A DNA stretch of 64,000 bases from a virus, in the IMG/VR virus record IMGVR_UViG_3300025151_000020, positions 29,311 through 93,310 of that record, one strand, 5' to 3'. The notes under the pieces are model-generated. The model was not told the DNA's origin. It did not search any database and worked only from the letters and a program-made list of their open reading frames with translations. Position 1 is the first letter of the stretch. Each line of letters begins with the position of its first letter. Below are positions 40,887-62,274 of the stretch, piece after piece. A program made the translations under genes and the position numbers.

Positions 40887-41351
40887 CTATCGTTGCCCCT
40901 TCGCACCTGCGTTTCTAAGTTTCGCATTTACATTGGATTCTGCCTGTGTTTCTTTGAAATCTGTTGAGTTTCCTCGTGTTGAAGATGATGCATGAGCTCC
41001 ATCAACTCTTTTAATATTCACAGGAGATTTGCCGCCTGATCTCTTTGTGCTAATCTTTCTTTGACTTCTACCTAAAGTTTTCAATGAAGGCAATTCTGTA
41101 TTTCTTGTCATAGCCTCTGATTCCTTGATTGGCATTTGACCGTAATCCTTGCCATCTTCTTTGACCATATGCCAAACCATGTCAAATGATTTCTTCAAAT
41201 CATCTGGGTGTTTGCCTTCCTTTTTGAGATCCTTGTAACATTGACACATAGGCTCTTTAGCGGAGCATTTCATAATTCCTTTTTTCATACAAGCACAAGG
41301 ATTGCTCTCTGTTGCTCCACAACAACAACTTTTTCTTTTCAACTCAGCCAT
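40887..41351 (-). CDS. Cys-rich basic protein carrying the FDxxWxxVK tag
   Basis: CCCG...CAC...C...CQC; SFDMVWHMVKE. Confidence 0.55.
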   Translation of the reverse strand: MAELKRKSCCCGATESNPCACMKKGIMKCSAKEPMCQCYKDLKKEGKHPDDLKKSFDMVWHMVKEDGKDYGQMPIKESEAMTRNTELPSLKTLGRSQRKISTKRSGGKSPVNIKRVDGAHASSSTRGNSTDFKETQAESNVNAKLRNAGAKGQR

Positions 41352-41977
41352 CAGCAATTCCACCTTTTCAGAGCTGCACCCTTTGGAGTTAGTTTGCCAC
41401 CTTTACTTGTTGGTCCTTTCACTCCACCCATACGAGCACAGAAGGACTTGCGTCTTTTCGCTTTCTTACTTCCAGGTTTCAATTTAGATGGTTTTGTGGT
41501 AACAGGAGGTTTGAGGTTTGCACCTTCCTCACGCTTGAACTTGGCACGACCCTTTGCATTCAAACCGCCTTTACGACTATGTTTGTTTGGATTATAACCA
41601 TGAAACGGCTTGTCTTTCTTCTTGCCTTTGATTAGCATGGCCTTTACAAGAACATTGCAAGTAGGACAATCACATGATTTTACCATTGTTGGCTTTCCTC
41701 CTACTCCTTGTGGTTTGCTTCTCTTTCTCTTTGTAGCGGCCTTCTTTTCCTTAGCACTCATTGATCCTGCCGTTTTTGGTGTTTTCTCGCTGACCTTCTT
41801 TGAAGGGCGGCATTTCGGATAGCCTCTTTTCGATTTGTCAGCATCATCCCTACCGCATGGCGGGTGTTTGCCATCCTTGTCTTTGCGTGAAACATCAACC
41901 CATTTTTCTTTGAACCAATCTCTGAGGTCTTTTTCCTCTTTGAGGAGTTTAGAGAAAGGAAGTGCCTCGGCATTCAT
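41351..41977 (-). CDS. Highly basic two-module protein (putative DNA-condensing internal protein)
   Basis: LRDWFKEKWVDV...CGR...YPKCRP and KGGLNAKGRA...RRKSFCARM...ALKRWNC, modules I recall from marine phage hypothetical proteins; ATGA coupling. Confidence 0.6.
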   Translation of the reverse strand: MNAEALPFSKLLKEEKDLRDWFKEKWVDVSRKDKDGKHPPCGRDDADKSKRGYPKCRPSKKVSEKTPKTAGSMSAKEKKAATKRKRSKPQGVGGKPTMVKSCDCPTCNVLVKAMLIKGKKKDKPFHGYNPNKHSRKGGLNAKGRAKFKREEGANLKPPVTTKPSKLKPGSKKAKRRKSFCARMGGVKGPTSKGGKLTPKGAALKRWNC

Positions 41978-42180
41978 TTCTTCCCCTTCTTTTTCCAACC
42001 GCCACCTGCTTTCTTGTATTCCTTAGCCGCCCATGCGTTTGCATATGCAGAAGGATACACATCAAACTTGGACTTAGCCCTAGATTTCATTTTTGACCAT
42101 AGACCAGGGTTAGTGGGTGCATTATCGCCCTTTTCTTCACCCTTTACTATTGACCAGCCTACTTCGAAAGCGTCTGCCAT
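41974..42180 (-). CDS. Small basic protein with an N-terminal tag
   Basis: MADAFEVGWSIVK followed by PTNPGLWS...KFDVYPSAYANAWAAKEYKKAGGGW, a common marine-virus module. Confidence 0.65.
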   Translation of the reverse strand: MADAFEVGWSIVKGEEKGDNAPTNPGLWSKMKSRAKSKFDVYPSAYANAWAAKEYKKAGGGWKKKGKK

Positions 42181-42213
42181 GAAGGACAATGAAAGTTCAA
42201 TCGTTTATCTGAT

Positions 42214-43698
42214 TTACTGCGGAGGAGGAGGAGGTTGTTCTCCTCCCTGTTGAGCTGCAGCCGCCTGTTGCTCTGCGGCAACTTCCTGTGGATCAGGTTC
42301 TTGATAGTCAAACTCAAGGAACTTATCATCAATTTGATCTCTCAATTGTGCTTTGTATCCTGCTTGCTTCATCTGCATCATGTTACGGATAGCCATCTCA
42401 TCTCTGCGGAATCGCATGATTTCATCTTCTTCCTCGTGTGGGTTGAGTGTAATTGTCCATTCATCCACGCCAAATGCTTCTAGCAATAATGGGAATAGTT
42501 GCCTGTTGTATATTGATTGAGCATATGCCAAAGCCCTGTTTGTAACAACAATCTGCATACCTTCGTTGTTTAACCCACCACCAGATACATCATTCATGAA
42601 TACATTTGATACACCATAGTATGCAGATATGCGTTGTCTAATGTCATCTTTGATAGGTATGTATTGCAGTTCCTCCAAAGTATCCATCATACGAACATAC
42701 TCAAGACCGCCCCTGCCTGATTCAGTTTCAACGCCAATCGTTGGAACATAATTTGGATCACGCTCAAGATGTTCTTGGATATTACGAGCAGTTCTCTCAA
42801 CAGTTTCCATGTTAGATGATTTAATCACCATGACACCACGAGGCATTCTCCTCTTCTGATATGCAGAATAAACATAGTTATCCATAGCAATGAGCGTATT
42901 TACCTGCCTCCACATAGTAGCAACAGGACTACGACCATACAGTTTGGATGGCGACCATTTGCTGATGTGTATGACTTCTCCCTCAGTATATACCTGGCCA
43001 TTCCCAACACCTGCTAAGTTGATGTAATGAATAGGAACAACAGGCATACCAGACACAGGACATACTGCATCGGGGTCGCTTGTTCTGAATGAACGGTCAA
43101 TCAAACTCGTATATTGTGATCCTCCTCTTATCCCCCTCTTGTCAGACAATATCCTCATGAATATGGGGTCTGCCCTGGATACTTCTCTTATTCTGAAGAA
43201 CATAGGTTGCTTAGTAGCGGGGTCAATGAAATACTCCTTTGTCAGAACAAGATATGCATCATCAACAATATTGAGATCCATTTCTATCTCTCTAAGAACT
43301 TCAATGAAGTTTTGTGTCATCCTGTTGCCACCCTTTAGAACCGCATCGGCATACTCGATCTGCGATTTGTCGGCTTTGCGTACCTCTCCTCCGCATTCCT
43401 TGCAAGCATCAACTTCTTGGTGATACTCACTTTCACACTCTCTGCATTTGCATACAAACTTGGATTTCCATTCCCATCCCTTTCTGAATGTTTCAACGCA
43501 TAAATGATTGAGGATGGATCTTAGAACCATGCACTCATATGCCGCAGCGTATAATGCAGGTATGGTAATTCCTTGCAATAAAGGCGGTTCTTGGACACCA
43601 TCGGTAAATAGGGGCATGGATGGAATAGGAGTATTATGCCTCTCCATATCCATGCCAATAGCTGCAAACATTCTTTCCATTTTTTTGCTATCAACCAA
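42214..43698 (-). CDS. Portal protein with a Zn-finger insertion
   Basis: EVIHISKWSPSKLYGRSP, MPRGVMVI and RISAYYGVS are HK97-type portal motifs; CRECE...CKECG insert. Confidence 0.9.
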   Translation of the reverse strand: MVDSKKMERMFAAIGMDMERHNTPIPSMPLFTDGVQEPPLLQGITIPALYAAAYECMVLRSILNHLCVETFRKGWEWKSKFVCKCRECESEYHQEVDACKECGGEVRKADKSQIEYADAVLKGGNRMTQNFIEVLREIEMDLNIVDDAYLVLTKEYFIDPATKQPMFFRIREVSRADPIFMRILSDKRGIRGGSQYTSLIDRSFRTSDPDAVCPVSGMPVVPIHYINLAGVGNGQVYTEGEVIHISKWSPSKLYGRSPVATMWRQVNTLIAMDNYVYSAYQKRRMPRGVMVIKSSNMETVERTARNIQEHLERDPNYVPTIGVETESGRGGLEYVRMMDTLEELQYIPIKDDIRQRISAYYGVSNVFMNDVSGGGLNNEGMQIVVTNRALAYAQSIYNRQLFPLLLEAFGVDEWTITLNPHEEEDEIMRFRRDEMAIRNMMQMKQAGYKAQLRDQIDDKFLEFDYQEPDPQEVAAEQQAAAAQQGGEQPPPPPQ

Positions 43699-45067
43699 GT
43701 GTCATCACCTCCTCTTTCATCTTGTCGAAGTCATCCACACTTATTTTGTGTTTCCTTAGCAATTTTGACCTTTCGGACATATCTAACGATTCATATGCCA
43801 TTACCATGAGTGTAGGTTTATCGCCTCTCATAGCCTTCAACATAGTCAATGCCGAGGGGAATGTATCTTTTGATTTACCGTTGAAATGAGGTTCTGCTAA
43901 CTCAAGTGCTTTCATTACAGTATCTTCGCCTTGCATAACCAATCCGATACCTCTTGCTTCCACACCAGGTAAGCCCATCTTCTGTAAGGCACTTGCATAC
44001 CAGGGTGCAGTTGGTGCTTTGAAACTAATTTCCAATCTTGGGTATAATCTTGAGTCAAACTTGAATCTGCCACCGTTTTCAATCAAACCTGCCAAGAATC
44101 TGTCTGCGTCTTTGAGAACTATATCTCCCCTTCTAATGTCGTAAAACAATCCCCTTCCTTGAGATTTGCTCAATTGACCTATTGCAATTATATCAAACAA
44201 GAAACCATGAGATTTGATTAAAGAAGATATTTCAGCAGGGCTTGCTTGTACTCCATATGTCTTCAATGTCTGAGCGTTCAATGCCCCTCTATCCAATAAG
44301 ACCTGTCTGCAATTCTTCAAAATTGCTCTTTCACGGTGCGACATTCGCTCAGACTTGTCAATGGTCATCCTCCAAATCCTTTCTGCATCCTTTCTGCCAT
44401 CTTCAGTAGGATCACTAACCCATGTCTTCACAAATCTTCTAAATGGCAAATCCAAACGATTCTTGTTGTTATTCAAAGAGTCAAAATCAAGATCCGTCAG
44501 AGGTAAAGACTCATACAAATTAGGATTGACACCCGTAAATTGAGCAAGAATTGATTGCTTTTCTAACTTAAGCAATGGTTGTATTGCATCAAGAACCTTG
44601 TTTTCTCTAGCCTTGACCAATATCTCTGTTACCTCTCTTCCTGTCATTCCAAAGTTTTCTGGAAACCAATTCTTCATTTTAGCAAGAGGCACAGGAGGAG
44701 GTGCTTCCGAGTCAAGTTCAGTTCCAGGTTGGTCTGTGGGAGGAGTGCTATTGTCATTCTTCATTCCCGTAATCTCAGTACCCTCTCCTTCTTGAGTGGA
44801 GGGTTGGTCTTTTACCGCTTGTTCTTGTTCTGCATTTTTCTTCTCTGCTTCTGCTAATTCTGTTTCGGCCTGTGCTACTTCTTTCTGTTTGGCTTGTAGT
44901 TTATTCTTGATAGCATCAACACCCATTGATGCCGCAGCTCCGATTGCCTTTTTACCCGCAGGAGATGAAGCAATTGCTCCGGCTGCACGAAAAACGGCAG
45001 GTGCAATCTTCTCAACAGAATCAGTCAAATCATTTACCCCATGTACGGGTTCGAGGTATTTACGCAT
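43691..45067 (-). CDS. Multidomain protein with a C-terminal LAGLIDADG-like domain
   Basis: RFLAGLIENGGRF...PRLEISFK; low-complexity coiled N-terminus. Confidence 0.5.
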   Translation of the reverse strand: MRKYLEPVHGVNDLTDSVEKIAPAVFRAAGAIASSPAGKKAIGAAASMGVDAIKNKLQAKQKEVAQAETELAEAEKKNAEQEQAVKDQPSTQEGEGTEITGMKNDNSTPPTDQPGTELDSEAPPPVPLAKMKNWFPENFGMTGREVTEILVKARENKVLDAIQPLLKLEKQSILAQFTGVNPNLYESLPLTDLDFDSLNNNKNRLDLPFRRFVKTWVSDPTEDGRKDAERIWRMTIDKSERMSHRERAILKNCRQVLLDRGALNAQTLKTYGVQASPAEISSLIKSHGFLFDIIAIGQLSKSQGRGLFYDIRRGDIVLKDADRFLAGLIENGGRFKFDSRLYPRLEISFKAPTAPWYASALQKMGLPGVEARGIGLVMQGEDTVMKALELAEPHFNGKSKDTFPSALTMLKAMRGDKPTLMVMAYESLDMSERSKLLRKHKISVDDFDKMKEEVMTLG

Positions 45068-46478
45068 CCGCCCACCCCAACCTGTTACGCCACATCTCAC
45101 CGTCTAGGATAATTATGTTTTCCCGATATTCCTTAGTCGCTTGTACCGAAAGTGCAAGGGCAATCACCATGTCGTCATGTGATCCAAGACTTTCCATCCT
45201 ACCATTATCAAGCATGGTGAACATGGATAATTCATTCAACAAGGTATTCATATGCCTCTTTGTTGCACCTTCATCTTTGTAAGGTACGGCTAGATGTTTT
45301 CTTTCAAAGTGCAATTGCAATGTATGAATCAATGCCTCCTTTTTCATACGACTCATATTGAATGGTTTGATAGGCAGATCGCCAATCTCTTGAAGGACTT
45401 GATTGAAAGCCATAGCAAAATTGTTAGTTTCTAATTCAATTATAACGGGGTTGAACCTAGCATTCAATTCTATTATCTTGTCAATCTGTTGATTGAAATC
45501 CATGTTTTTCTCGTGATGAACATGGACTATCCTCTTGTGCCTATTCTCATCCATGCCAATTACCATCATACAAGTGTAATCCGCACTTCTGTTTGCACTT
45601 ATTGCAGGGTCCCAACCAATGTAGTAGTTCAATTCCTCAGTTGGATCAGGATAGTAAGATAATGCAAGAGAATCATCTTTTACTCCTTCAAGCATTTCTT
45701 CTGGGAATAAACTCGCTTCACTTGCTATTGGCTTACATAGGTACTCACGAGTAAATGCAATAGATGTCATTTCACCCCTTCTAGTATTCAATGCCTCAAG
45801 ATTCCACCTCTCCGGCCACAATGGTTCGCCTGTTGCTTCATTGATTGCAGGATATTCTTTCACACAATACCCGTCTAATCCTTTCAATTCAGAATATAGA
45901 TCGGTATATGAGAACGGTGTTCCGACTACACACATTTGAGCCGTGTGGTGGAGAACGGGCAAAAGAGCAGTATAGAACCATGTAGATATGGATTTCAATT
46001 GAGTATCTGCTTCACTTGACAATATGTCATCCAGAACTACTATATCTGGGTGAGCACCACGAACCGCCTTTCCTATGGACATAGCTCGTATTGATGATTT
46101 ATTTGTCATCTTGAATAATTGCTTTGCCCAACCTCTCTTTGGCTTAAGATGTGCAAGTGCAGGAGTTGTCATAATCAATTCATCCATCTTTGCCATATGG
46201 TCTATGGATTGGTGCTGACTGTGGCTAAAGAACAAAACTTCCGTACCAGGATTATATGCCATCTTCCATAGAAGATATACTCTAAAGAACACGGATTTGC
46301 CGTGATCTCTGCTTGCTATGACGCATACTTTGTTGTGTTTCTCTGCATTCTCATACCACTCTTTATGAAAATGTGCTAATTGAAATTGACATATGTCCTC
46401 AAAGAAGAAACGGAAATCTCTCCTTCCCATTTCCCAATCAACTTTGCTCGTTAATTCGAGCATTGCGTCATTAGTCAC
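45060..46478 (-). CDS. terL: Terminase large subunit
   Basis: Walker A ASRDHGKS, Walker B IVVLDD, coupling motif VGTP, RNase H-like IGWDPA...DYT...HDDMVIALAL. Confidence 0.95.
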   Translation of the reverse strand: MTNDAMLELTSKVDWEMGRRDFRFFFEDICQFQLAHFHKEWYENAEKHNKVCVIASRDHGKSVFFRVYLLWKMAYNPGTEVLFFSHSQHQSIDHMAKMDELIMTTPALAHLKPKRGWAKQLFKMTNKSSIRAMSIGKAVRGAHPDIVVLDDILSSEADTQLKSISTWFYTALLPVLHHTAQMCVVGTPFSYTDLYSELKGLDGYCVKEYPAINEATGEPLWPERWNLEALNTRRGEMTSIAFTREYLCKPIASEASLFPEEMLEGVKDDSLALSYYPDPTEELNYYIGWDPAISANRSADYTCMMVIGMDENRHKRIVHVHHEKNMDFNQQIDKIIELNARFNPVIIELETNNFAMAFNQVLQEIGDLPIKPFNMSRMKKEALIHTLQLHFERKHLAVPYKDEGATKRHMNTLLNELSMFTMLDNGRMESLGSHDDMVIALALSVQATKEYRENIIILDGEMWRNRLGWADA

Positions 46479-47763
46479 TCTTCCACCCCGATGGTAACAA
46501 ACTCATGTCGTCACCACCTGGAGCATTCTTTGCGAACAAAGAAGCAGGTAGTAATGACAAGTCATCTCCTTCAACTACATCAAAACCAAGATCCGGCTTG
46601 CTTTCTTCTTGTGGTGGCTGGCTTTTGATGATTGGTGACATAGGCTCACTTACATTACGCCTTACCTTTACGGTTTCAAGATAGTTGGGATTGTGGAATG
46701 GGTTTGCAAACGGATCTTTGAGAACAAATTGCTTTCCAAATATATCGTCATACCTTTCTGCGGCAGAGGGAAAGTGATCCTCTAAATCTCCCATGCTATT
46801 GTAAAGGTGTACTCTTGCGGTTTCATCCCCCTCTTCGGCCAAATCCAACAATTCTGTTATCAAACTTGAATCAGTCATAGGAGTGATGTTTGGCAAATCA
46901 TAAATGTCCTTTGGTATTTCTTCTATTTCAATATCTTCATCATTAGGTTCTGCTTCTTTGGGTAGTGTAGGGAGTTCTCCCCCTGTTTGCTCTAGTAAAG
47001 CCGCCAAAGCCTGTTGGTAGGTTTTATTTTCTTTCATGGCTCTATGTACTGCCCTATCCATTTCTTTAGTGCCTCCTCTTTCAAAATCTTTAGGGCCAAG
47101 CACAGAAACTCCAAACGCATCTCTATACAAATTAACAAAGTGACCTGGAACTATGTTCTCATCATAAAGTTCCCCTGTTAATTGCTTGATTCGTGCCTTT
47201 GGTTTTCGGTTTCTTGCAAACCCCGCAATCGCATCCTGGTTTGCTTGAACCGCATCGCTCTTAGGAGCAGGAATCTCTACCTTCTCTTTCTGGGGTTTCT
47301 TTGTTGCCGTTGCCTTAGCCTTAGCCTTTGGTTTAGGTTCTGGTTTAACCTCATTCTTTTTTTTTGGCGGTTTGGATACTAGATCGGTTGCTGATGCTTC
47401 TCTTACGGCATCAGCATCGGGTTCGGGAATAGTTGCCTTCATTCGTTCTTCCTCCTGTTCGGGTGTTTCTTCGGTTTGAGGAGGGTCTTCTGGTGGCGGA
47501 GAATCATCGGAAGTTGAGGTTGCAGCTTGTTCCTCCGATGATTCAGATGATTCTTCTTCTTGTACAGGAGCAGGAGGCGTTGTTGGCATTGGCCTACCAT
47601 ATTTCAGTTGAAAAGTTAGATTCTCTCCTCTCATCCTATCCGCTGCTCTCTCAGCAGCGATTCTCTGTTGGCGGTTTCTTGCCCAATCTCTTATGATTCC
47701 CTTGAACAGGTCATCATCGTCTATTGCTTCCCATGCCGTGTCAAACGAATCATCTGAAGGCAT
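46471..47763 (-). CDS. Putative internal virion protein (acidic/Pro-rich)
   Basis: Start MPSDDSFDTAW after GGAGG; paired DD[LM]SLLP motifs at the C-terminus. Confidence 0.55.
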   Translation of the reverse strand: MPSDDSFDTAWEAIDDDDLFKGIIRDWARNRQQRIAAERAADRMRGENLTFQLKYGRPMPTTPPAPVQEEESSESSEEQAATSTSDDSPPPEDPPQTEETPEQEEERMKATIPEPDADAVREASATDLVSKPPKKKNEVKPEPKPKAKAKATATKKPQKEKVEIPAPKSDAVQANQDAIAGFARNRKPKARIKQLTGELYDENIVPGHFVNLYRDAFGVSVLGPKDFERGGTKEMDRAVHRAMKENKTYQQALAALLEQTGGELPTLPKEAEPNDEDIEIEEIPKDIYDLPNITPMTDSSLITELLDLAEEGDETARVHLYNSMGDLEDHFPSAAERYDDIFGKQFVLKDPFANPFHNPNYLETVKVRRNVSEPMSPIIKSQPPQEESKPDLGFDVVEGDDLSLLPASLFAKNAPGGDDMSLLPSGWKSD

Positions 47764-49378
47764 TTCGAATTGCCTCCGTTGTGTGCTTATCTCGGAATAC
47801 CACTCTCTGCTTTTGCAAATCCCAATAGTCTGCAATCGGATCATCAAACGATGCCGTAAAGTCACCTGCCGCCATTGACCTCAATCTGTTTTGACCCTGC
47901 CTTCTTTGGGATGCGTTATACGCTCCTCTTGCAAGACCCGAAAGACCAAATGTTGCTACATTTGAAAGTAAGCCTGTTCCTATTCCTCCTTTAGTTCGTG
48001 CTTGTTGGCTTGCTTGATCGACTAATCGCTCTTGAGCATAAGTTGCTCCGTCTTGCTGACTAGCAGAACCCGTTGAAGCAGTTGATGGAGCAGACCCTGT
48101 TGCTTGTGCCGTCTGATTTCTTGTATCTGTTCCGGCTCTTGATCTCTCCTGCGTTCTTTCGGGTAAAGCGGCATTCTCTCCTGTTGTTGCGGGTAATGCC
48201 GTGTTAGTAGCTGCTCTTTGTTCGGGAGTCTGATAACCCATCTGCTCTGCAAATGCAGGTGGCAATCTTCCATACCTTTCTTGAAGGCGAGCGTTATTCA
48301 CATTTTGTCTAATCTGCTTCTGACCTTCCCTGTCCATAGCAGGTGCTCCTTCACCACCATATACTCGTTGATTCCTTGCCTCTATTGCATTCATAGCACC
48401 TTGACCGGATACTGCTCCTCTAAGTGCCGCCGCACCTTGACCGACTAAATTGCCCATGCCAGGCATAATCAAACCAGATGCATCTCTGCCTGATCTATCT
48501 GAACCATACATCGCAGTTCCTGCGGCAGAAGAAACTCCTCTTCCTACTGCGGATGCTCCACGACCTGTTGCACGACCTGCCGCCATTGCACCACGACCTG
48601 CGGCTCTAGCACCTGTGCCAATCGCTTGACCTGCGGCACGAGCTGCACCTCCTAGTGATGAGAATGCATTACGAGCCATTCCAGGTGTAGCGGAAGCAAC
48701 GGCAGAAGCACCCTGCCCTATCTTCTCGGCAGCACCCCTCATTCCTGCACCAACTGCACCTGCGGCAGAAGATGCTCCTCTGCCAACTGCACCTGCGGCA
48801 GAAGATCCTGCTCTGCTCATTGCACCTGCGGCATCTTGTGCTACATTGCCAAGAGATGAGAAAGCATTCTGAACCATGCCTGGTTGCCCTGCACTATGCC
48901 TGTTTGCCTCTGAAACAGGTGATCCTTCTCTATTGGTCAAACGACTCAATCTCTGATCAAACTCGTCACCAGGAGTACCCACAAGTGATTCTTTTGCACG
49001 AGAAGCACCTTGACCTATCTTCTCAGCCGCACCTCTCATTCCCGCACTAACCGAACCTACGGCAGAACCTGCTGATTCTTTTGCACGACCTGCTATATTT
49101 TTAGCGGCATCCATCATGCCTCCGCCTTCTCTTGGATTGGTAGCATCTGCTCTGAATCCTTCGCCCGCAAAGAAATTACTTATGCGTGGTGCAAACTCAT
49201 GGTCGCCCGTTTCTGGATTAACATATTTCTGATGTCTTTTGTATCCGGCATTTTTCATTTCATCATAGCCTTCTTCTCCTGGTAATTTTCTATAACCTGG
49301 ATTGCGAATGATTTTCTTTTCAAGACTCCATGATTGAACCGCTTTTCGGATTTCATCGTCATGTGCAAAACTAAGCAT
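47750..49378 (-). CDS. Gly/Ala-rich repeat protein (putative ejection/pilot protein)
   Basis: Amphipathic repeats GASSAAGAVGxG and GMRGAAEKIGQGAS; hydrophobic GIGTGLLSNVATFGLSGLA near the C-terminus. Confidence 0.5.
   Translation of the reverse strand: MLSFAHDDEIRKAVQSWSLEKKIIRNPGYRKLPGEEGYDEMKNAGYKRHQKYVNPETGDHEFAPRISNFFAGEGFRADATNPREGGGMMDAAKNIAGRAKESAGSAVGSVSAGMRGAAEKIGQGASRAKESLVGTPGDEFDQRLSRLTNREGSPVSEANRHSAGQPGMVQNAFSSLGNVAQDAAGAMSRAGSSAAGAVGRGASSAAGAVGAGMRGAAEKIGQGASAVASATPGMARNAFSSLGGAARAAGQAIGTGARAAGRGAMAAGRATGRGASAVGRGVSSAAGTAMYGSDRSGRDASGLIMPGMGNLVGQGAAALRGAVSGQGAMNAIEARNQRVYGGEGAPAMDREGQKQIRQNVNNARLQERYGRLPPAFAEQMGYQTPEQRAATNTALPATTGENAALPERTQERSRAGTDTRNQTAQATGSAPSTASTGSASQQDGATYAQERLVDQASQQARTKGGIGTGLLSNVATFGLSGLARGAYNASQRRQGQNRLRSMAAGDFTASFDDPIADYWDLQKQRVVFRDKHTTEAIRNAFR
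48480..49100 (-). repeat. Imperfect tandem coding repeats
   Basis: Recurrent gcacctgcggcagaaga and gcacgacctgc units on the + strand. Confidence 0.75.
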
Positions 49379-51194
49379 ATAGAGCCACCTTCACCATCTG
49401 CACATTCTCATGAGGAACATTGAACGCCTTTGCGATCTGTCGCCAATCTCCTCTTGTATGGAATATAGATACAACATCTGTTGTTCCCATCTGAACCTTG
49501 CTTGAAAGCAAAGCAACATCAATTGGAGAATCAACAGACAATTTACCTAAGTGAGTTGTGTCGTCTATGGTGGCTTTTGCTAATGCCAACTGAACTTCTT
49601 CTATGTATTCTTCAAAGTCATTTCTATATGTTTCAGAACGCAGTATAATGTCATCAACAGACATCTTTCCTAACAACCCTGCCAACCTTGACAATAAACC
49701 TCGCCCCTGCCCTGAAACATCACTCGATTGAGCCATTGGTATATCGCTATTCCCCTGCGTTATACGGAACATAGGTGGAACATACGATGGTCCGGTAGGT
49801 GGCGGAGTAACGGCATTGGGGCTTGGATTCGGCCTTTCTGGTAGTGGTTGTCTTGGAATACTGCTTGGTGGCTCACGAATAGTGGGATCAGGTTCTTCTC
49901 CCGTTATAGTGGCTTCTTCTTGAGGCACTTCAACTGAAGGACCGCCATACCATGAGGGTGGTCTTCCTCCTGTTTCTTTCATGTGAGCATCGTATAAACC
50001 GTTGAGTTTTCGTTGTCTAGCACTTCTTCCTCTAATTTTACCTGCATATGCATCATCAAATATGCGTTGGACTACTTCTTCATCAAGTTCATGAGCATCA
50101 GCAATTGCTCTGACCATGCTCTTATTCCCTTTGTATGACCCCTTGCCGAGATTCTTAATCCAATTTGCATCTCTAAGTTCTGGATGTATGATGTCTTCTG
50201 AAACTCTATTTTCAACCGCACTCGGTAAAACTTGTGAAGGGTCTTCCTCTTGTTCGGGAGGCATGAGATCCCCACTTCTTATCTCAGCAGCTTGTTGTGC
50301 CTTTCTTCCAATTCTACCATGTGTTGAATCAAAATTATGATGACCATGATGTGTTCCGTGATATACTAACTTGTCATTCATGAAGTTCTGCTTGACATAT
50401 TCATATGCTTGCTCAGGATTCATGCCTTGTGATGTGGCTTGTGCTTGCAAGTCTTTTACTAATCTTCCAAGATTATCCCTCATCGGCCTGTCGTTGATTG
50501 TAATTACATTGCGATGAACATACTGTGCAGGTATGATATATCTATTCCTGCTATCCTTTCTCCCCGTTTTTCGATTATATTGATGGCCAATAAATCCTAA
50601 ATCCTTTGCGGCTTCTTCATACCATCTTGCATATCCCTCTGTGTTGCCATTATGACCACTAATGATATGAGTAACTAATTTTCCATTTTGAGTATGGAAT
50701 GGATTGAAAGAACCGTCTTTATTTTTCTGGGCTTGAACTAAAGCCGCATTCTCCGACTTATGACTTGCGTTGATTGACCATTTAGCAGGGTCTGCACCTG
50801 TTTTGTCAAAAGGTAAAGGAACGGCAGAAATGCCTCTTTGCTGATTTAGAACATTCTGCCTTTCAGCAGCTTGATTCAACATCGGCCTTCCAATCCTCAA
50901 ACCTTCTTGTAACGCTAACTCGTAAGCAGGATCTTCTGGTCCTGCATGGTATGCTTTTGCATAATAGTCTAACAACTGACCTGTTCGTATTGCCATCTCC
51001 ATAGCATCTGCATCATATGGATTGAGTAGCATTTCTTCTATATCTTCTAAATTATGATGAAGGTTCGGGGTAATCAACCCCATAGCCTCAGAGTTGATTT
51101 CACCTTCATGCCCCATAACGGCACTTATGAATTGGTCTATATCTGAAACCACATAGGATTTGGAGATATAGAAATCATCAAAGTTCCATCCCAA
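49371..51194 (-). CDS. Hypothetical protein (putative internal virion protein)
   Basis: 607 aa, Pro-rich linker, N-terminal FDDFYISKS. Confidence 0.55.
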   Translation of the reverse strand: MGWNFDDFYISKSYVVSDIDQFISAVMGHEGEINSEAMGLITPNLHHNLEDIEEMLLNPYDADAMEMAIRTGQLLDYYAKAYHAGPEDPAYELALQEGLRIGRPMLNQAAERQNVLNQQRGISAVPLPFDKTGADPAKWSINASHKSENAALVQAQKNKDGSFNPFHTQNGKLVTHIISGHNGNTEGYARWYEEAAKDLGFIGHQYNRKTGRKDSRNRYIIPAQYVHRNVITINDRPMRDNLGRLVKDLQAQATSQGMNPEQAYEYVKQNFMNDKLVYHGTHHGHHNFDSTHGRIGRKAQQAAEIRSGDLMPPEQEEDPSQVLPSAVENRVSEDIIHPELRDANWIKNLGKGSYKGNKSMVRAIADAHELDEEVVQRIFDDAYAGKIRGRSARQRKLNGLYDAHMKETGGRPPSWYGGPSVEVPQEEATITGEEPDPTIREPPSSIPRQPLPERPNPSPNAVTPPPTGPSYVPPMFRITQGNSDIPMAQSSDVSGQGRGLLSRLAGLLGKMSVDDIILRSETYRNDFEEYIEEVQLALAKATIDDTTHLGKLSVDSPIDVALLSSKVQMGTTDVVSIFHTRGDWRQIAKAFNVPHENVQMVKVALYA

Positions 51195-51200
51195 TGAAAA

Positions 51201-52556
51201 TCACCTACCATGCCCAACAACACCCGCTTCAACCAATACGGATGTATCGCCAAAGCGGTATGCGGCCTGATCTTCAATCCTCCCTGGTCCGTCTTCGTAA
51301 TGCTTTGAACTTGGATCTGATGACCTTTCTGGGCTTGCTTGCCCTCCCCTCTTTGCATTATCTCCTAGTTCAGGAGTGGCTTTTGTTAGTTTATTCAACT
51401 GCCTCAATATAGCCTCAACTTTCTTTTTGAGATGTAATATCTCGGTTCGGGATAATGCCGTTTTCTTTGATATGGAATCATCTGAACGCCTAATGTAATC
51501 TTCTGTTCCTAACGGGTCGCCATATCCTGGTTGAACCTTGATTGCATTTTTAGGGTTAGTTCCAAGTTGTGGAGATGACGGCATTTTTGTTCCTCTGCCC
51601 GAATCAACGGGATTTCCTAGAACAACTCCTCTAGTTCCTGTTTGGCTGATACCTGTTCCGCCTGTTCCATAATGATGAGTAAATTGTCGTGGTTGTGATC
51701 CTCTCGCCCTATACATTCTATTCTGAGCCTTCTTTCTTTCCCATGCTACGGGATCACGAAGCCTCAAAGGAATGGTTCTATCTCTTGTTGAACCAAGATT
51801 TCTCAATGGAAGACTTCTCGCATTGGGTGCGAATGATTGTCTTCGAGAATAAAGGTTGAGTTGCCTCTTAGCCCTACCCGCTTCCCTCTTGCTTTGCGAC
51901 TTCGGTTGCCTTCCGCCTGTGGCTTTGATTCTTCCACCGACTTTCCTGCCTCTTCTTCCTCTCCCTTTTCGTCTTCGTTTGGCTTTGGACTTTCTTCTTT
52001 CTTCGTCACTATCTTCATCCTCCTCGTATTTTCTTCCTTTGTATTTTCTTTTACCTTTGCTAATTGACCATGCATCCTCAAATGATTCGTCACTTGACAA
52101 AGTAATTGCTCTAGTGCCTCCTCGTGAAGGATGGCCGTATGTCACATTTGGCGTTGTGCTTCTAACTGTTCCTCTGTTTGCACCTGCTGACAATGACAAA
52201 CCATTAGCCCCAAGATCCACGCCAAGACCTGTTTCAAGCAATTCGTTCTCCTGCTCCATCATAGGACTCCTCTCCATTGCCTCATCCATTTCTTCGGGTT
52301 TGACGCTAATGTGTTGCAGACCAGGCATGAGTTCTCTCAATGCCTTGTCCTTACGCTTCTGAGGATTGGTTTGATCTCTGCTTTCACCATCTTCTGGTGT
52401 GGTTCTCGTGTGATGTGCAAGCCCCTCTGCATTTTCATTTGGATTGACATCAAGATCACCATAATTGCCCATTTCACGGGGTTTATGCCCGCCCATGAAC
52501 TCGGCTACTCTTGGTTTCCAACCTTGATATGAGTCACGAGGATTGCCCATTGTCAC
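51201..52556 (-). CDS. Arg/Lys-rich protein (protamine-like middle) with an internal tag
   Basis: SFEDAWSISKG directly precedes KAKRRRKGRGRRGRK. Confidence 0.55.
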   Translation of the reverse strand: MTMGNPRDSYQGWKPRVAEFMGGHKPREMGNYGDLDVNPNENAEGLAHHTRTTPEDGESRDQTNPQKRKDKALRELMPGLQHISVKPEEMDEAMERSPMMEQENELLETGLGVDLGANGLSLSAGANRGTVRSTTPNVTYGHPSRGGTRAITLSSDESFEDAWSISKGKRKYKGRKYEEDEDSDEERRKSKAKRRRKGRGRRGRKVGGRIKATGGRQPKSQSKREAGRAKRQLNLYSRRQSFAPNARSLPLRNLGSTRDRTIPLRLRDPVAWERKKAQNRMYRARGSQPRQFTHHYGTGGTGISQTGTRGVVLGNPVDSGRGTKMPSSPQLGTNPKNAIKVQPGYGDPLGTEDYIRRSDDSISKKTALSRTEILHLKKKVEAILRQLNKLTKATPELGDNAKRGGQASPERSSDPSSKHYEDGPGRIEDQAAYRFGDTSVLVEAGVVGHGR

Positions 52557-53047
52557 TTGTGAATCGCCCCCTCATCGTATGGAGGATAGGTAGAACCTCC
52601 ATATTTATTTTGATTATTCACTCTAATGGCGTGAACGGATTTGAAGCCCGCTTGGATTCTTATTGGCAAATTAAGATACCACTTTGCGAGAATCTTTGTT
52701 TGAGCATATGACTTGGATAATGCCATGAATGCTTGCTTGAGATGCCTTATTGTTTTCAAAACTTCAAGATACTGAATATCATCTGTTAGATCAGGACATT
52801 CTTCTTCGGCAGTTAGATAGCTGATGATTGCAAAGCGACACTCCATTATTGCCATATACACAGAAGTCGCTATCTCATCTGCATTATCTATCTCAAAGCC
52901 TTCCATTGACTCTAACCATGCTTTTACTACGAAATCAAGACCATCCAGGCAACGAATCAATTCATCCTCACAGATAGGCCAACCATCTTCATGGAGTATA
53001 TCTTCATACTCCGTGCCTTTCAACATCAAATCCCACAATGATTTCAT
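52553..53047 (-). CDS. Hypothetical helical protein
   Basis: ATGA coupling at 53044-53047; starts MKSLWDLMLKG. Confidence 0.55.
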   Translation of the reverse strand: MKSLWDLMLKGTEYEDILHEDGWPICEDELIRCLDGLDFVVKAWLESMEGFEIDNADEIATSVYMAIMECRFAIISYLTAEEECPDLTDDIQYLEVLKTIRHLKQAFMALSKSYAQTKILAKWYLNLPIRIQAGFKSVHAIRVNNQNKYGGSTYPPYDEGAIHK

Positions 53048-55061: not shown

Positions 55062-55074
55062 TTTTATTCCTCCA

Positions 55075-56034: not shown

Positions 56035-56043
56035 CTTCGTGTA

Positions 56044-56066: not shown

Positions 56067-56082
56067 TAGGCTAATCCATTTA

Positions 56083-56814: not shown

Positions 56815-56821
56815 GGGAAGA

Positions 56822-57049: not shown

Positions 57050-57060
57050 CTCTTCCCCCC

Positions 57061-57534: not shown

Positions 57535-57668
57535 CCTTCATTTTCTAATGCACGAAATCCTTTTTCGATCAACATATTACAAAATGCTGACTTGGATGCA
57601 AGTCCTCTTTTTGCTTCTAACAAATGATAGAGGTCTTCCCTCAGAATTACAGATACGTGCTTTCCCAT
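57531..57668 (-). CDS. Ribbon-helix-helix (CopG/Arc-like) transcription regulator, 45 aa
   Basis: Not in the ORF track. Hand translation MGKHVSVILREDLYHLLEAKRGLASKSAFCNMLIEKGFRALENEG: alternating beta strand, helix A, SKS turn, helix B. ATGA-coupled to the next gene. Confidence 0.8.
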   Translation of the reverse strand: MGKHVSVILREDLYHLLEAKRGLASKSAFCNMLIEKGFRALENEG

Positions 57669-57674
57669 TGCAAG

Positions 57675-57697
57675 AATGTCAGTCGTGTCAGGTTAAT
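57675..57697 (-). promoter_or_regulatory. 23-bp promoter/operator, copy 1
   Basis: ATTAACCTGACACGACTGACATT, ending 6 nt before the RHH start codon; contains TGACA-N4-TGACA. Confidence 0.8.
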
Positions 57698-57714
57698 GAG
57701 TGTTCGGAGTAAAA

Positions 57715-58977
57715 TCACGGAAGAAACGCAGATAAATCGGGTTCTCCTTCTAACGGACTCATTAGACTTAGACGCTTCTCTTCCAATTGTTGTTGCACCC
57801 ACCATTGTTGTGCCATTGCCAAGTTCTTTTGTTCTTCATCTAAACTGTGATGAAAAGTCTTTGATCCATGACCTGTGTAATCTATCGCCTTTACATTAGG
57901 GTCCCAACAAGCATCGCAATTGTGCGTTTCACACCTGTTTTGTTCTCCTGTCTTACCTGCGGCAGGGCAAGCCCATACTGCTCCGTGATCATACCTATGA
58001 CTCGCATTGACTGAACTGCCCGTGATATTAGGATGTGATGCCATGAGTCTTTTCATTTGTTCCGAATGATGCACAGGAGCGTGTTGTTTGTGCTGAGAAA
58101 CCCTTATTGTGAGATTGGGAGGAATCTGCCCCCCTGCCTGTATAAACTCTCTCAGATGTTCATGCTCTCTTGTTGATAGCCAAAACTTCTTGTCAGGGTG
58201 TGCTCTTGCAACATCTGAATGGATTGCGAAGTGATGAGGGCTTTGCATATCTCCCGAAGCATTCAATCTAATTCTATCATGTCCTGCTTCCCCTATCTGC
58301 CAAGAAAGAGCTGCGGCATACATCTGGGGATTTGCTAAACCTAGAAGATTCCTAGTTTGATGTGCTTGAACGCTATCTGATTTCAGATGCATGACATTAT
58401 CAACATAGCAACCATCGCAAACCGTATCCTGATCGCTCTCTCTAAGTTTTGACCCCATGTTGCACCCCCAAGTAGGCAAATCTTCACTTGGACCCCACAT
58501 TTTATCCATATTACTCATACCATGCGTATCTTTGGTAGTGTGTCCTTTGATGTCATTGTCTTTGATAAACTTGCCAATAGCACGAGATGAATGTGCTCTG
58601 CTTGCAGGTATTGAACCTGTTTGATTTCTCCATATGTGTTCCATCATGTGAGTGCCGTCATCTGCTCTAAGATTGACACCTCCTTGTATTGGATAGTTGG
58701 ACAAACCCTCTCTGACTTGCTCTAATGCCTTAACATGAACCGGATCTATCTCTTTTCTCCTGATCCTTGTCAATGACCCTTCGCCCTGGAAGTTTTCCTC
58801 GCCTCTTGCAGCCGCCCAAAATTGACTACCTGTATTCAATTGGTTTCGTATCTCTTCAATACTTTTGGTGATTACATCCTGTATTGGCTCTTGATGTAGC
58901 GGATCTCTGCACACTTGGCAGTACAGATGAGAGTTATCATCATGGAGGAGTGCATTGTGAGGTATAGCTACCGCCAT
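57715..58977 (-). CDS. GP88-family (radical-SAM-like, Cys-rich) phage protein with an N-terminal extension
   Basis: LPTWGC...VCDGCY, RIRLNASGD, FWLSTRE, PPNLTIRVS, CPA...C...CDACWD. Confidence 0.65.
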   Translation of the reverse strand: MAVAIPHNALLHDDNSHLYCQVCRDPLHQEPIQDVITKSIEEIRNQLNTGSQFWAAARGEENFQGEGSLTRIRRKEIDPVHVKALEQVREGLSNYPIQGGVNLRADDGTHMMEHIWRNQTGSIPASRAHSSRAIGKFIKDNDIKGHTTKDTHGMSNMDKMWGPSEDLPTWGCNMGSKLRESDQDTVCDGCYVDNVMHLKSDSVQAHQTRNLLGLANPQMYAAALSWQIGEAGHDRIRLNASGDMQSPHHFAIHSDVARAHPDKKFWLSTREHEHLREFIQAGGQIPPNLTIRVSQHKQHAPVHHSEQMKRLMASHPNITGSSVNASHRYDHGAVWACPAAGKTGEQNRCETHNCDACWDPNVKAIDYTGHGSKTFHHSLDEEQKNLAMAQQWWVQQQLEEKRLSLMSPLEGEPDLSAFLP

Positions 58978-59009
58978 ATGTTCGCCCTAGAATTACCATT
59001 CATCAAAAC

Positions 59010-59106
59010 TGTTGTGATGTGCAGAGGAGGTGGAACAAGGAGATGAAAAATCCGAATAGTAAGAAACGCATCAAGTGCCACCAGAGCGTTTAGTACCTCC
59101 CCTGCG
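59010..59106 (-). ncRNA. Candidate structured small RNA
   Basis: ORF-free gap on the coding strand behind a consensus promoter; terminal stem GCAGGGGAGGU/ACCUCCUCUGC and internal stem AAACGC/GCGUUU. Confidence 0.5.
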
Positions 59107-59137
59107 AAATGAAGTAAAACGGACAATTGTTAATGAA

Positions 59138-59545
59138 TTATCCCGCAGTTATTATTCCATTGCAAGTGCTACAAACCGTGTATGAGTATGGGCCTTCTTC
59201 ATCCTCATCCTCTATGAGCAAAGCCCCATCCTTCCAATCTTGTATCTGTTGAGGACTAGCGGGTACTTGATTTCCAAACCTGTCATGTGCCATCCCATTG
59301 TATTCAGGGCAACTGCACCAATCATCCTCTGAATCCTTCTGTGCTATCAAATCCTCAGAAGTCGTTTGGCCTGTTCCATTACAGGAAGGACAAGTGACGA
59401 AATTGACGTTGATTGGGTTTCCTTGAGGATCATTCTCAGTAACTTGAACCTGGCCTCTGCCTTCGCATTGTGGGCATGAGTGCATACCGCCCTCTGTGTA
59501 TCTGACTTCTTTGACTATGTTCCAAGCCTTGTCAAAAGAAGTCAT
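59138..59545 (-). CDS. DnaJ-type Zn-finger protein with an N-terminal tag
   Basis: CPQCEGRG...CPSCNGTG; MTSFDKAWNIVK. Confidence 0.65.
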   Translation of the reverse strand: MTSFDKAWNIVKEVRYTEGGMHSCPQCEGRGQVQVTENDPQGNPINVNFVTCPSCNGTGQTTSEDLIAQKDSEDDWCSCPEYNGMAHDRFGNQVPASPQQIQDWKDGALLIEDEDEEGPYSYTVCSTCNGIITAG

Positions 59546-59550
59546 CCTAA

Positions 59551-60072
59551 TCACTCAGTTATATGGACTTCTTCTCCACAAGCAAAACATTTGACTCCTG
59601 CTTCATTACTAAATCTAAATGGGCTGAAAGATGTCTGATTGCTTGAGTATTCTTGATTTTCTTCTCCGCAAAACGGACACATCCAAGTGTATTCTCCATC
59701 GGGATGGTCTTCAGGCACTTCACGGTGTCTTACCTTAACGGGTCTTTCTTGTTTAACAATGGGGTCTGGGTGACATCTGCAACTCGCCCAGGGCGATCTT
59801 TCTCCTTCTGTTCTAACCTTGACTTGCTCACCACAATCGGGGCATTTGGGTAATGGCACATCGCCATGATCAACGGCTCTATCTAACTGAGAGAAAAAAT
59901 CGTCTTTTTTTGCGAAATCCCATGCCTTTTCAAAAGGATCAGGATCTCCACGATTTGCTTTTAATCTATCACCACAACATTTGCCCGCAGCTTCCCCCGA
60001 ACCACAAGCACAAGGAGAACAAGTACAACTTTTAGGGCTACATTCAGGGCAATCTCTAGCCATCTCAATCAC
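59551..60072 (-). CDS. Multi-Zn-finger protein with a SEC-C-like motif
   Basis: PCACGSGEAAGKCCG, CPDCG, CPFCG...CFACG; PFEKAWDFAK. Confidence 0.6.
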   Translation of the reverse strand: MIEMARDCPECSPKSCTCSPCACGSGEAAGKCCGDRLKANRGDPDPFEKAWDFAKKDDFFSQLDRAVDHGDVPLPKCPDCGEQVKVRTEGERSPWASCRCHPDPIVKQERPVKVRHREVPEDHPDGEYTWMCPFCGEENQEYSSNQTSFSPFRFSNEAGVKCFACGEEVHITE

Positions 60073-60265
60073 CCGTCATAGGCAACTCTTGAATCTGGTC
60101 CATAGCTCTTTCAAGTTCTGCCCTAATAGATGGTTCAATAAAACTTGATTGCATATCCATCGCCAATGTTTCCATAATAACATTGTACGCTGACATTGGC
60201 ATCCTAAGAGTAACCATGCCTTCCTCTTTAACAACATCAAAAGCCCTGTCAAACGTGTCCGTCAT
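60065..60265 (-). CDS. Small protein with an N-terminal tag
   Basis: MTDTFDRAFDVVK; ATG 17 nt after the promoter motif. Confidence 0.6.
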   Translation of the reverse strand: MTDTFDRAFDVVKEEGMVTLRMPMSAYNVIMETLAMDMQSSFIEPSIRAELERAMDQIQELPMTGD

Positions 60266-60292
60266 GGTAATGGCCAAATAGCCCATTGTTGA

Positions 60293-60391
60293 TTAACACT
60301 CTTGTTCTGTCAAGCAAGTGCAACCATCATGGTCTATACCATCCCAACCACAATAACAGACTTCATGCGGCTCAACCTTTGGGTATGTCAT
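60293..60391 (-). CDS. 32-aa Cys-rich microprotein
   Basis: MTYPKVEPHEVCYCGWDGIDHDGCTCLTEQEC; fills the gap and follows a promoter motif at 15 nt. Confidence 0.45.
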   Translation of the reverse strand: MTYPKVEPHEVCYCGWDGIDHDGCTCLTEQEC

Positions 60392-60429
60392 GAGATCTCT
60401 GACCTTCCATTGGTTAATTAGATCTTACA

Positions 60430-62274
60430 TCAATCACGCTGACCAAATGCGGTCTGCCGATAGAATCCTCTCATTGGCAGCTCGGAGTCCGGCCAAGTCT
60501 GCATTTCATTGACTTTCTCTTGACTCATGCCTGGTATGTTGGCCATTCCTACAACTTCCATGACTTCTCTTCCTTTACCCTGTATCCCTTTTTCTGTACG
60601 AGGAAGAACTTGATATCCGGTCAAACCGCCTGTATCCCATAGATGTCTTGGCATACGGGCAGAATTGAATGCAATTGTTGGAACTCCTGCATCAACTATG
60701 GGGCGAATAGCAGACATCAGCCTATGTGTGAATCCTCCAGGTTCTCCCTTATCACTTGCAATCAATTTATGTTCTCCAGGTTCTTGATAGTAAGGAGGGT
60801 CAGAAAGGAGGAATGATTTGTATTCAGGGTCTGCATAAGGGGCAACCGCTTCTAAGAACGGAACATGATCTCCCTCATGGAAGTGGTATTCCTTATCTCT
60901 CATCTCTCTTGACCAGGGTTCGTAACTGTATGGCACATCCACATCTCTGCCTCTTTTATCCACTCTTTGAGGTATGTATGGCAAAGTCGTATTGAGCGAT
61001 AATGATTTCGAACCCCCTCCTGCATGAATCAAATCCAACAATTCTTGTGATCTGCCATATGCATTAGGATATTTTGTTCGTACAAGTTCTTTCTGTTGCT
61101 TTGACGGACCACGAGGAGCGATATTCAATGAGTGCGTTGCTTCATCCCCTATGCGGAAATGCCCCCCAATCATCTGAGGCAACAGTATTCCCGTCAAACG
61201 AGCCATCTCTGCTGATTTATCGGGATTGGTTCGCCACTTGCCCTCATTCATCAATTCATTCATTTTCCTTCGCAACTCAAAGAATCTAAGATTAGATGCA
61301 TACATTTGGTCTGAGTCTAAACCCGCACCTCCTGTAATGTCATGAAAATCTCTAACCTCCTGTGCAGTAACGGAAGGCAAGTCAATTATCGGAGAACCTG
61401 GCATCAATCCAGGGAGTGTTCTCGGATCACCAACTCGGTATGTGTATTCTTCAGAGGGCTTCCACTCCAATAAATTGGGATTATCTCTAACATTCCTAAA
61501 GAAGTTCGGAATGAATCTGTTGTAATCGTTGCCTATGTACGCAACATGAGGTCTAACTGCAAACACACCGCCTCCACCACCGATATTCGGCTCAATCATC
61601 TCTTCTGATCCTGTTCTACCAAAAGCATCAGTCAGAAACTTCTGGTAATGCCGTTTTGACTTGTTGCCCGAAAGCCCTGGAATCAAAGAGGGCATTGAGT
61701 CGCCTGACTCAAATCTCTCCCACGCTTGCTTAATGCCTGGTTGGAACTTGGTTACTGCCCATGAATCCTCAAACACATCGTTGGAGGTCGTCATCAAGTC
61801 ACCCCCACCCATAGACACGGGTTCTCCCTCTCTTTCTATGGCAGCTCTTGCACGATTGTCCTCGCATTCATCCCATGCAGCAAGACATTGACGGGCAAAG
61901 TTTCGTTCAGACGCTGCCCATTCCATATCTCCAAAATCCCTATACAATGCCACATCTCCATTTTGATACCCGTAATAGTTCAAAACGCCTTTCAATTCTT
62001 CACAAGACATATTCAAATGACTTTCATACACTTCTTGTTCTCTCATTGAATCTCCCTCCGAGTCATCAAACTGTCGAAGCAGGGCTATTACTCCGTCAGC
62101 GTACATTTGCCTAATATTCTGACAACAAACATCTCCCTCTTCAAGTGGGGGTTCAAGACTTGTATCCGGCATGGCCACTTCTTCTTGTTGTTGTTGTTGA
62201 ACAGTTCTTGCCATCTCCGCCCTTTGCTCATCAAACTTAGCAACGCCCCAAGCCTGATCGAAAGCATCCGCCAT
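60430..62274 (-). CDS. Dam-like (D12 class) DNA adenine methyltransferase with a doubly tagged N-terminal extension
   Basis: GNKS (motif X), IEPNIGGGG (I), GNDYN (II), LLSDPPYY (IV), IAFNS. Confidence 0.65.
   Translation of the reverse strand: MADAFDQAWGVAKFDEQRAEMARTVQQQQQEEVAMPDTSLEPPLEEGDVCCQNIRQMYADGVIALLRQFDDSEGDSMREQEVYESHLNMSCEELKGVLNYYGYQNGDVALYRDFGDMEWAASERNFARQCLAAWDECEDNRARAAIEREGEPVSMGGGDLMTTSNDVFEDSWAVTKFQPGIKQAWERFESGDSMPSLIPGLSGNKSKRHYQKFLTDAFGRTGSEEMIEPNIGGGGGVFAVRPHVAYIGNDYNRFIPNFFRNVRDNPNLLEWKPSEEYTYRVGDPRTLPGLMPGSPIIDLPSVTAQEVRDFHDITGGAGLDSDQMYASNLRFFELRRKMNELMNEGKWRTNPDKSAEMARLTGILLPQMIGGHFRIGDEATHSLNIAPRGPSKQQKELVRTKYPNAYGRSQELLDLIHAGGGSKSLSLNTTLPYIPQRVDKRGRDVDVPYSYEPWSREMRDKEYHFHEGDHVPFLEAVAPYADPEYKSFLLSDPPYYQEPGEHKLIASDKGEPGGFTHRLMSAIRPIVDAGVPTIAFNSARMPRHLWDTGGLTGYQVLPRTEKGIQGKGREVMEVVGMANIPGMSQEKVNEMQTWPDSELPMRGFYRQTAFGQRD

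Follow-up and report, generated by a model that had tools for sequence, protein, structure and literature searches.

A short peptide shared by unrelated structural-arm proteins of a magrovirus-like archaeal virus, a candidate address for loading cargo into the head

The head protease of bacteriophage T4, gp21, is of the S77 type and cuts after Glu. Cellular encapsulin nanocompartments take up one or few cargoes by cargo-loading peptides that are mostly C-terminal, rich in Gly, Ser and Leu, and uncleaved. Phage P1 packs its Dar enzymes, including the methyltransferase-helicase DarB, in the head and injects them, and they protect the DNA; the Dar proteins are not known to have a common short tag. 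The C-terminal part of HK97 gp4 reportedly acts as a capsid-targeting signal and can carry a foreign protein, as Duda, Oh and Hendrix are said to have found in 2013. The T-even phages carry a diverse set of internal proteins with the capsid-targeting sequence (CTS) alone in common, encoded at polymorphic loci (PMC3012670), a scaffold domain of 102 residues is removed by the S78 protease of HK97 (PMC12749128), and the P1 virion's proteins have been listed (PMC9024508). In the present study, a stretch of 64,000 nucleotides of viral DNA (positions 29,311 to 93,310 of IMG/VR record IMGVR_UViG_3300025151_000020; hereafter the window) was analysed for a peptide tag, F-[DE]-x-[AGSV]-[WF]-x3-K in its strict form, for which a preliminary description had proposed a role as capsid-targeting signal. 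The source is assigned below to the magroviruses, and no mention of such a motif was found in the magrovirus literature that was searched.

The strict pattern was searched for by a regular-expression scan of all six frames. The eight strict peptides listed in the preliminary description were all recovered in their places; they lie in minus-strand coding frames of the window, with F codons starting at 62262, 61773, 60253, 59934, 59536, 52082, 42168 and 41186. The plus strand of the window gave a single match, at 5714, which is a chance one. Over the whole contig there are 10 coding-strand matches in nine otherwise unrelated proteins, the additional two lying 2.6 and 4.9 kb before the window, and six of the 10 sit 1-3 residues past the start Met. 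With shuffled proteins the mean was 0.115 matches per proteome, and no more than 1 was seen in any of 200 shuffles, the gene calls behind this test keeping nine of the 10 matches; the 10 observed thus stand against about 0.1 expected. An unbiased search for enriched 4-of-9 residue patterns recovered the tag de novo, and a position-specific scoring matrix (PSSM) built from 290 carriers scored true tags at 16.8-29.5, clear of everything else. The eight tags of the window are as follows.

62236-62262, minus strand: tag FDQAWGVAK, N-terminal (M-A-D-A-F...), in a 616-residue two-tag methyltransferase protein (gene 60430-62274)
61747-61773, minus strand: internal tag FEDSWAVTK in the same 616-residue protein, directly ahead of the methyltransferase domain
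60227-60253, minus strand: tag FDRAFDVVK (M-T-D-T-F...) in a small acidic protein of about 66 residues (gene 60065-60265, or to 60286 with an upstream ATG)
59908-59934, minus strand: internal tag FEKAWDFAK in a 173-residue protein (gene 59551-60072), placed behind a Cys-rich N-terminal part and ahead of zinc-ribbon domains
59510-59536, minus strand: tag FDKAWNIVK (M-T-S-F...) in a 135-residue protein with DnaJ-type CxxCxGxG zinc fingers (gene 59138-59545)
52056-52082, minus strand: internal tag FEDAWSISK at about residue 160 of a 451-residue protein (gene 51201-52556)
42142-42168, minus strand: tag FEVGWSIVK (M-A-D-A-F...) in a basic protein of 68 residues whose gene (41974-42180) directly follows that of the portal
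41160-41186, minus strand: tag FDMVWHMVK in a 158-residue basic protein (gene 40887-41363), following a Cys-rich extension

The 616-residue protein is made up, in this order, of a tag, a variable Cys-containing helical module, a second tag and a Dam-like D12-class N6-adenine DNA methyltransferase; PF02086 had been precomputed on its homologues P0010, P0011, P0013 and P0014. Across 12 homologues, down to 45% identity, A6, F7, A10, W11 and K15 form an invariant island in the first tag, and D168, F170, E171, W174 and K178 are invariant in the second. The variable module between the tags (residues 50-145) has conserved Cys residues (C-C, C, C) and is the sole part of the methyltransferase model predicted with some confidence (predicted local distance difference test, pLDDT, 65-81), as a helical bundle. 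The highest PSSM score was that of FDKAWNIVK, whose 135-residue carrier has a Pfam match under the gathering score. The acidic protein of about 66 residues has tagged homologues in relatives. In the 451-residue protein the tag is followed by an extremely basic stretch rich in Lys and Arg, and the G125 homologue carries the variant V-E-D-V-W-H-L-L-K in the matching region. The 158-residue protein has its counterpart in relatives, where the same basic protein begins directly with the tag. In the 68-residue protein the tag and a linker stand ahead of position 1 of the DUF5872 profile, and tagged orthologues occur in relatives. This profile is split over two overlapping open reading frames (ORFs; 41351-42189, minus strand), with positions 1-42 in the tagged protein and positions 47-110, together with a C-terminal DUF6321, in the next basic protein of 208/215 residues; the split could reflect two genes, a frameshift or programmed recoding. 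Most carriers are acidic, and the small basic type of 'internal protein' is not universal among them.

Four variant sites had also been put forward in the preliminary description, namely

47719-47748 (about), minus strand: degenerate tag S-F-D-T-A-W-E-A-I, lacking the Lys, near the N-terminus of a 464-residue protein (gene 46471-47865)
51159-51194, minus strand: M-G-W-N-F-D-D-F-Y-I-S-K, N-terminus of a 607-residue core protein; orthologues read F-D-x-D-x-F-x-I-x-K
53018-53047, minus strand: M-K-S-L-W-D-L-M-L-K, N-terminus of a protein of about 164 residues; orthologues read x-L-M-L-K-D and the Trp is not conserved
47810-47833, minus strand: A-D-Y-W-D-L-Q-K, 19 residues ahead of the C-terminus of a 542-residue low-complexity protein; [YF]-W-x-L-Q-K in many orthologues

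Only the first of these held up as a tag. It scores 12.9 in the PSSM, and its carrier, which sits just upstream of the terminase gene, has 15 tagged homologues in relatives with the strict form P-x-x-D-x-F-D-x-A-W-x-x-[SA]-K. NFDDFYISK, SLWDLMLK and ADYWDLQK were rejected by the PSSM, yet among its own orthologues each is a conserved motif ending in K, and that of the 607-residue protein is possibly a distant variant of the tag. A 109-residue coiled-coil protein of the head module (39651-39980, minus strand) starts with M-A-E-K-E-D-A-M-D-I-A-K-A, which has a tag-like shape with the aromatics missing and a PSSM score of 9.1, i.e., at noise level.

The source contig is 93,310 bp long and a single-contig record, of which the window is the right 64 kb. 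Replication genes occupy the plus strand at genome bases 1-24.1 kb, while the rest of the contig, including the whole window, is one tightly packed minus-strand (structural) arm in which genes abut or overlap and intergenic regions are few. This arm encodes giant tail/fibre proteins in addition to the following.

45060-46478, minus strand: terminase large subunit (Pfam Terminase_6C)
42214-43698, minus strand: portal protein (Pfam Phage_portal, E = 6e-11)
34258-35640, minus strand: head maturation protease, Peptidase_S78 (HK97 type, residues about 37-180), with a scaffold-like C-terminal half fused to it
33063-34220, minus strand: major capsid protein of the HK97 fold family (33% identity to the HVTV-1 capsid protein)

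The terminase is common to 80 marine IMG/VR contigs at 74-99% identity. The capsid protein shows 32-33% identity to its counterparts in the haloviruses HVTV-1, HCTV-1 and HCTV-5, and the same relationship to halovirus capsid proteins was stated for magroviruses in their founding paper (PMC5434244). A complete-size 106-kb contig of the same virus type, with 16 tags, lies inside the Poseidoniales single-cell genome AG-422-I20 and is a direct virus-host link. Together, these features make the source a head-tail virus of magrovirus-like type whose hosts are Marine Group II archaea.

In related loci (968 kb), 112 strict matches were found on the coding strand as compared with 2 on the other, and five relatives that are 91-100% complete contain 7-16 tag patterns each, all on one strand, with 0 for a reversed-pattern control. 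A scan of IMG/VR for M-x-x-F-[DE]-x-A-W-x3-K gave at least 48 loci with two or more tags, the densest array among the matches listed having 14 tags in 11 kb. The 290 distinct carriers have a median length of 150 residues and were grouped by the sequence past the tag into about 142 families; the domains that follow the tag include D12 methyltransferase, DUF5872, GP88 and zinc ribbons, the tagged GP88-family proteins being found in relatives. The possibility of a single paralogous family was ruled out by this clustering and by the different known domains after the tag. In 81% of the carriers the tag is N-terminal, directly past the start Met and most often as M-T-A-F. The preliminary description, in which the carriers were said to be otherwise unrelated and the tag to lie at the N-terminus or just before a domain, therefore agrees with what is seen in relatives too, namely a portable element at the level of the peptide. 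The carriers are encoded in hypervariable arrays of tagged genes that differ between relatives, and homologues in this genome were found for no more than 34 of 280; the repertoire therefore turns over fast. One tagged family in relatives begins with K-M-P-V-Y-H-G-T right at the end of the tag; it has Atlas scores of 0.88-0.90 to ADP-ribosyltransferase-fold enzymes and the Tpt1 H-G-T motif at E = 0.22, and could be ADP-ribosyltransferase-like, while the largest tagged family could be ParB/sulfiredoxin-like. Both readings are leads only, because the AlphaFold models are poor (pLDDT 37 and 47, in models of the two-tag methyltransferase and the M-P-V-Y-H-G-T family), too poor for a structure search.

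The distribution over the genome was uneven. In four gene-called genomes, 44 of 252 structural-arm genes were tagged as compared with 0 of 189 replication-arm genes (p = 6.5e-12), and no tag was present on the portal, protease, capsid protein, terminase or any identified tail protein, in line with the enrichment in late and cargo genes, and the absence from replication and tail genes, that had been expected. The main arrays are located at the start of the structural arm; other tags flank the terminase and portal genes or follow the fibre genes. A membrane-like segment was found in 0 of 290 carriers, in comparison with 36 of 208 (17%) untagged ORFs of the same arm; together with the invariant acidic residue at tag position 2, this ruled out a secretion or membrane-targeting signal. 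In the Poseidoniales single-cell genome there are 16 matches on the viral contig and 1 in the other 1.1 Mb. A further 120 Poseidoniales genomes gave 37 matches, about 0.3 per genome and near chance, several of them in wrong frames or in one conserved gene, and these near-chance host counts ruled out mimicry of a host short linear motif such as the PCNA-binding box. When 185,579 species genomes were searched for M-T-A-F-[DE]-K-A-W, only chance singles and one viral contig turned up, that of the Poseidoniales single-cell genome. The tag shows specificity both for the virus and for the structural arm. Halovirus HVTV-1 yielded no match, one mismatch being allowed, and its 4-of-9 enrichment revealed no comparable pattern; because it is without the tag, the comparison of sequences indicates an origin of the tag within the magrovirus lineage. 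A gene of the HMGL-like family (HMG-CoA lyase/isopropylmalate synthase; 62277-63185, minus strand, Pfam E = 5e-32), which looks like an auxiliary metabolic gene, is also located close to the beginning of the structural arm, immediately upstream of the tagged array.

The consensus of the tag is about 12 residues long, (M)-[TS]-[AD]-x-F-[DE]-x-A-W-x-[VIL]-[VAL]-K. The F-x3-W-x2-[VIL] spacing places F, A/W and two aliphatics on one face, at i, i+4 and i+7, often with a Ser/Thr/Asp cap ahead of the predicted helix, and the tag is accordingly predicted to be a short amphipathic helix of about 2.5 turns, 9-12 residues ending in Lys. The acidic second residue and the strict Trp would point to a specific protein pocket and not to a membrane. 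Every synonymous codon occurs at F, D/E, A and K and the variable positions swap amino acids freely; selection therefore acts on the peptide, and a DNA-level element was ruled out by the synonymous codon variation. The tag is selected as a peptide, is portable and is found only on soluble proteins. Some codons of the tags in G000 and L001-L080 are overused relative to genome usage, i.e., GAC 37 vs GAT 21, GCT in 53 of 95 Ala and TTT 81 vs TTC 24, which could possibly be caused by recent cassette spread, by recombination between tags or by constraints on the mRNA at its 5' end. The invariant Lys is a sharp end of the tag. Among the 142 families, the residue right after it is Ala in 32 (p = 8.5e-10) and Met in 12 (p = 0.004); where Met follows, it looks as if the tag had been placed directly ahead of the original start codon.

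Based on these results and by analogy with T4, the reading that we favour, and to which we give about an even chance, is that the tag is a capsid-loading address that is also a site of the head protease, and that the cargo enters the next cell with the DNA; the destination of the tag, the cut and the injection are what we infer. The tag helix would dock inside the procapsid, on the scaffold half of the protease-scaffold protein or else on the capsid protein (its inner face or its N-terminal segment), so that docked proteins would be enclosed while the shell assembles. The S78 protease would then cut behind the invariant Lys, favouring Ala, Gly, Ser, an acidic residue or Met in the following position, and the cut would free the cargo inside the head. 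In this genome such cargo would comprise the Dam-like DNA methyltransferase, the zinc-finger proteins and the very basic proteins, and in relatives also the probable ADP-ribosyltransferase-like and ParB-like enzymes and GP88-family proteins. Delivered with the DNA, it might serve as a fast-evolving take-over or counter-defence kit. That magroviruses load the products of between a tenth and a fifth of the genes in their late arm by such a readable peptide code, the virion being a delivery vehicle for a hypervariable arsenal of enzymes, we consider a little short of an even bet.

The protease belongs to family S78 with E = 1.9e-9 in Pfam and E = 2e-4 in BLAST against HK97 gp4. In the HK97 gp5 sequence, Lys103-Ser104 stand at the scaffold/capsid junction and the mature protein starts at Ser104, the S78 protease of HK97 thus cutting behind Lys103. 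The capsid protein of the present virus has a conserved L-L-K|A-D at residues about 35-39, with S-K|A-D at the same place in HVTV-1. The linker of the protease-scaffold protein (residues about 300-340), otherwise variable, contains two conserved N-[KR]-x-V-I-K-x-[PG] islands, kept in five of six relatives, between the protease domain and the coiled-coil scaffold half, and by their sequence these are candidate cleavage sites. The S78 protease, the invariant Lys, the Ala after it, the conserved L-L-K|A-D, the solubility of all carriers and the hypervariable arrays fit a T4-like targeting and cleavage signal, as circumstantial evidence. Upstream of the protease gene lies the gene of a protein of 1101-1113 residues (35685-39026, minus strand) that has no Pfam match; at its residues about 690-740 a stretch K-x-K-G...V-F-D-G-Y-I-K-G resembles nucleotidyltransferase (ligase or capping) motifs. 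No similarity was found that would make it a homologue of the 'zeta toxin' gene at the same position in HVTV-1.

Several points weigh against loading into the capsid. The virus is uncultured, and packaging, the cut and the candidate receptors are all proposed from sequence. Between the tag and the C-terminal tail of the protease-scaffold protein of this genome, a loose resemblance, [ILV]-[DE]-x-W, was seen and no match. Because both structure predictions are poor, the helix rests on the sequence pattern and on low-confidence models. Tripeptides of two hydrophobic residues followed by Lys are common, which makes the candidate sites in capsid protein and scaffold weak evidence. The main arrays stand where the structural arm adjoins the replication arm, a position that could mean early expression and not co-expression with the head proteins. 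The carriers include a protein at the place of the small terminase as well as proteins bearing two tags; a simple cargo model has no need of either. Finally, HVTV-1 has the same capsid/protease module without the tag, and the module therefore needs no tag.

The same helix could instead dock its carriers on a hub outside the capsid, viral or of the host (chromatin, RNA polymerase or the ribosome are possible targets), and so gather enzymes at a replication or assembly factory or at a host target, unpackaged and uncut. The F/W/aliphatic face at i, i+4 and i+7 is typical of short helical docking motifs, the carriers are enzymes and zinc-finger proteins able to act in the infected cell, two tags in one protein would raise avidity for a multivalent hub, and the position of the arrays next to the replication arm would suit such a role. 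However, not one of the 189 replication-arm proteins is tagged, and the tags cluster around the terminase and portal genes. Host proteomes are without the motif, so that no common host motif is mimicked. The invariant terminal Lys, the enrichment of Ala and Met after it and the end of the tag at an apparent start Met (K-M-P-V-Y-H-G-T) would also be unexplained, and we regard a hub of this kind as unlikely.

A signal of stability or processing, for instance a degron or a site recognised by a chaperone or protease, which would set how long potentially toxic viral effectors last in the infected cell with no packaging involved, seems less probable still, at perhaps one chance among many. Its appeal lies in the predominantly N-terminal tag, in a conserved Lys that could serve as acceptor of a ubiquitin-like small archaeal modifier protein (SAMP) or as a cleavage point, and in carriers that are likely to be toxic, although these (ADP-ribosyltransferase-like proteins and ParB-like nucleases) are leads only. 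Yet internal tags are conserved as well as N-terminal ones, harmless-looking small basic proteins next to the portal and conserved neighbours in the head module bear the tag also, and the arm revealed neither a dedicated additional protease nor an adaptor. Both the hub and the stability signal explain the sharp boundary at K and the association with the head module less well than capsid loading does. As for a nucleic-acid element at gene starts, acting in translation, regulation or recombination, or a relic of one duplicated family, either of them devoid of peptide function, the biased codons (GAC over GAT, GCT over GCA, TTT over TTC) and the tandem arrays, in which duplication and cassette exchange are likely, could be taken in its favour. 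We hold it to be highly improbable, as all synonymous codons occur at every conserved position while the variable positions change the amino acid, internal copies lie far from start codons, and the roughly 142 families, followed by different known domains, have no similarity beyond the tag.

In comparison with the systems described above, capsid loading by the tag most resembles that of T4. As with the CTS of IPI-IPIII and Alt, a short N-terminal peptide is the sole similarity among diverse, fast-changing proteins with clustered genes, a head protease is encoded whose proposed cut would remove the tag, and the plausible cargo includes enzymes, such as Alt-like ADP-ribosyltransferases, and basic proteins. 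There is, however, no sequence similarity between the CTS and the magrovirus tag, which belongs to an archaeal virus, has a far larger repertoire (10-16 tags in each genome and, among those sampled, over 140 families) and is in many cases internal or doubled. Because the protease matches Peptidase_S78 and the tag ends in Lys rather than in Glu, unlike the S77-type gp21 and the Glu end of T4, the magrovirus tag would by analogy work like the T4 system without being a member of it by descent. HK97 has the same S78 protease family and a Lys at the gp5 scaffold/capsid junction, but no set of tagged cargo proteins, and it uses the N-terminal domain of its capsid protein as scaffold, whereas the scaffold-like half of the magrovirus is fused to the protease. 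Encapsulins are alike in having a short conserved peptide on unrelated cargo, which in their case is bound to the inner face of an HK97-fold shell, while no sequence resemblance to the magrovirus tag was seen. The Dar system of P1 is a functional analogue for the tagged Dam-like methyltransferase but differs in its hierarchical loading through partner proteins.

Of the archaeal viruses in the surface ocean, magroviruses belong to the most abundant. If the tag does direct proteins to the capsid, sequence alone would suffice to list what the virions of these uncultured, globally abundant viruses carry and which effectors they likely inject, and the large 'dark' part of magrovirus gene content would be opened to functional guesses on take-over and counter-defence. 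A tag of 12 residues that loads foreign proteins into an HK97-fold shell would also be a practical tool. It would be the first capsid-targeting system in an archaeal virus, with a repertoire much larger than that of T4.

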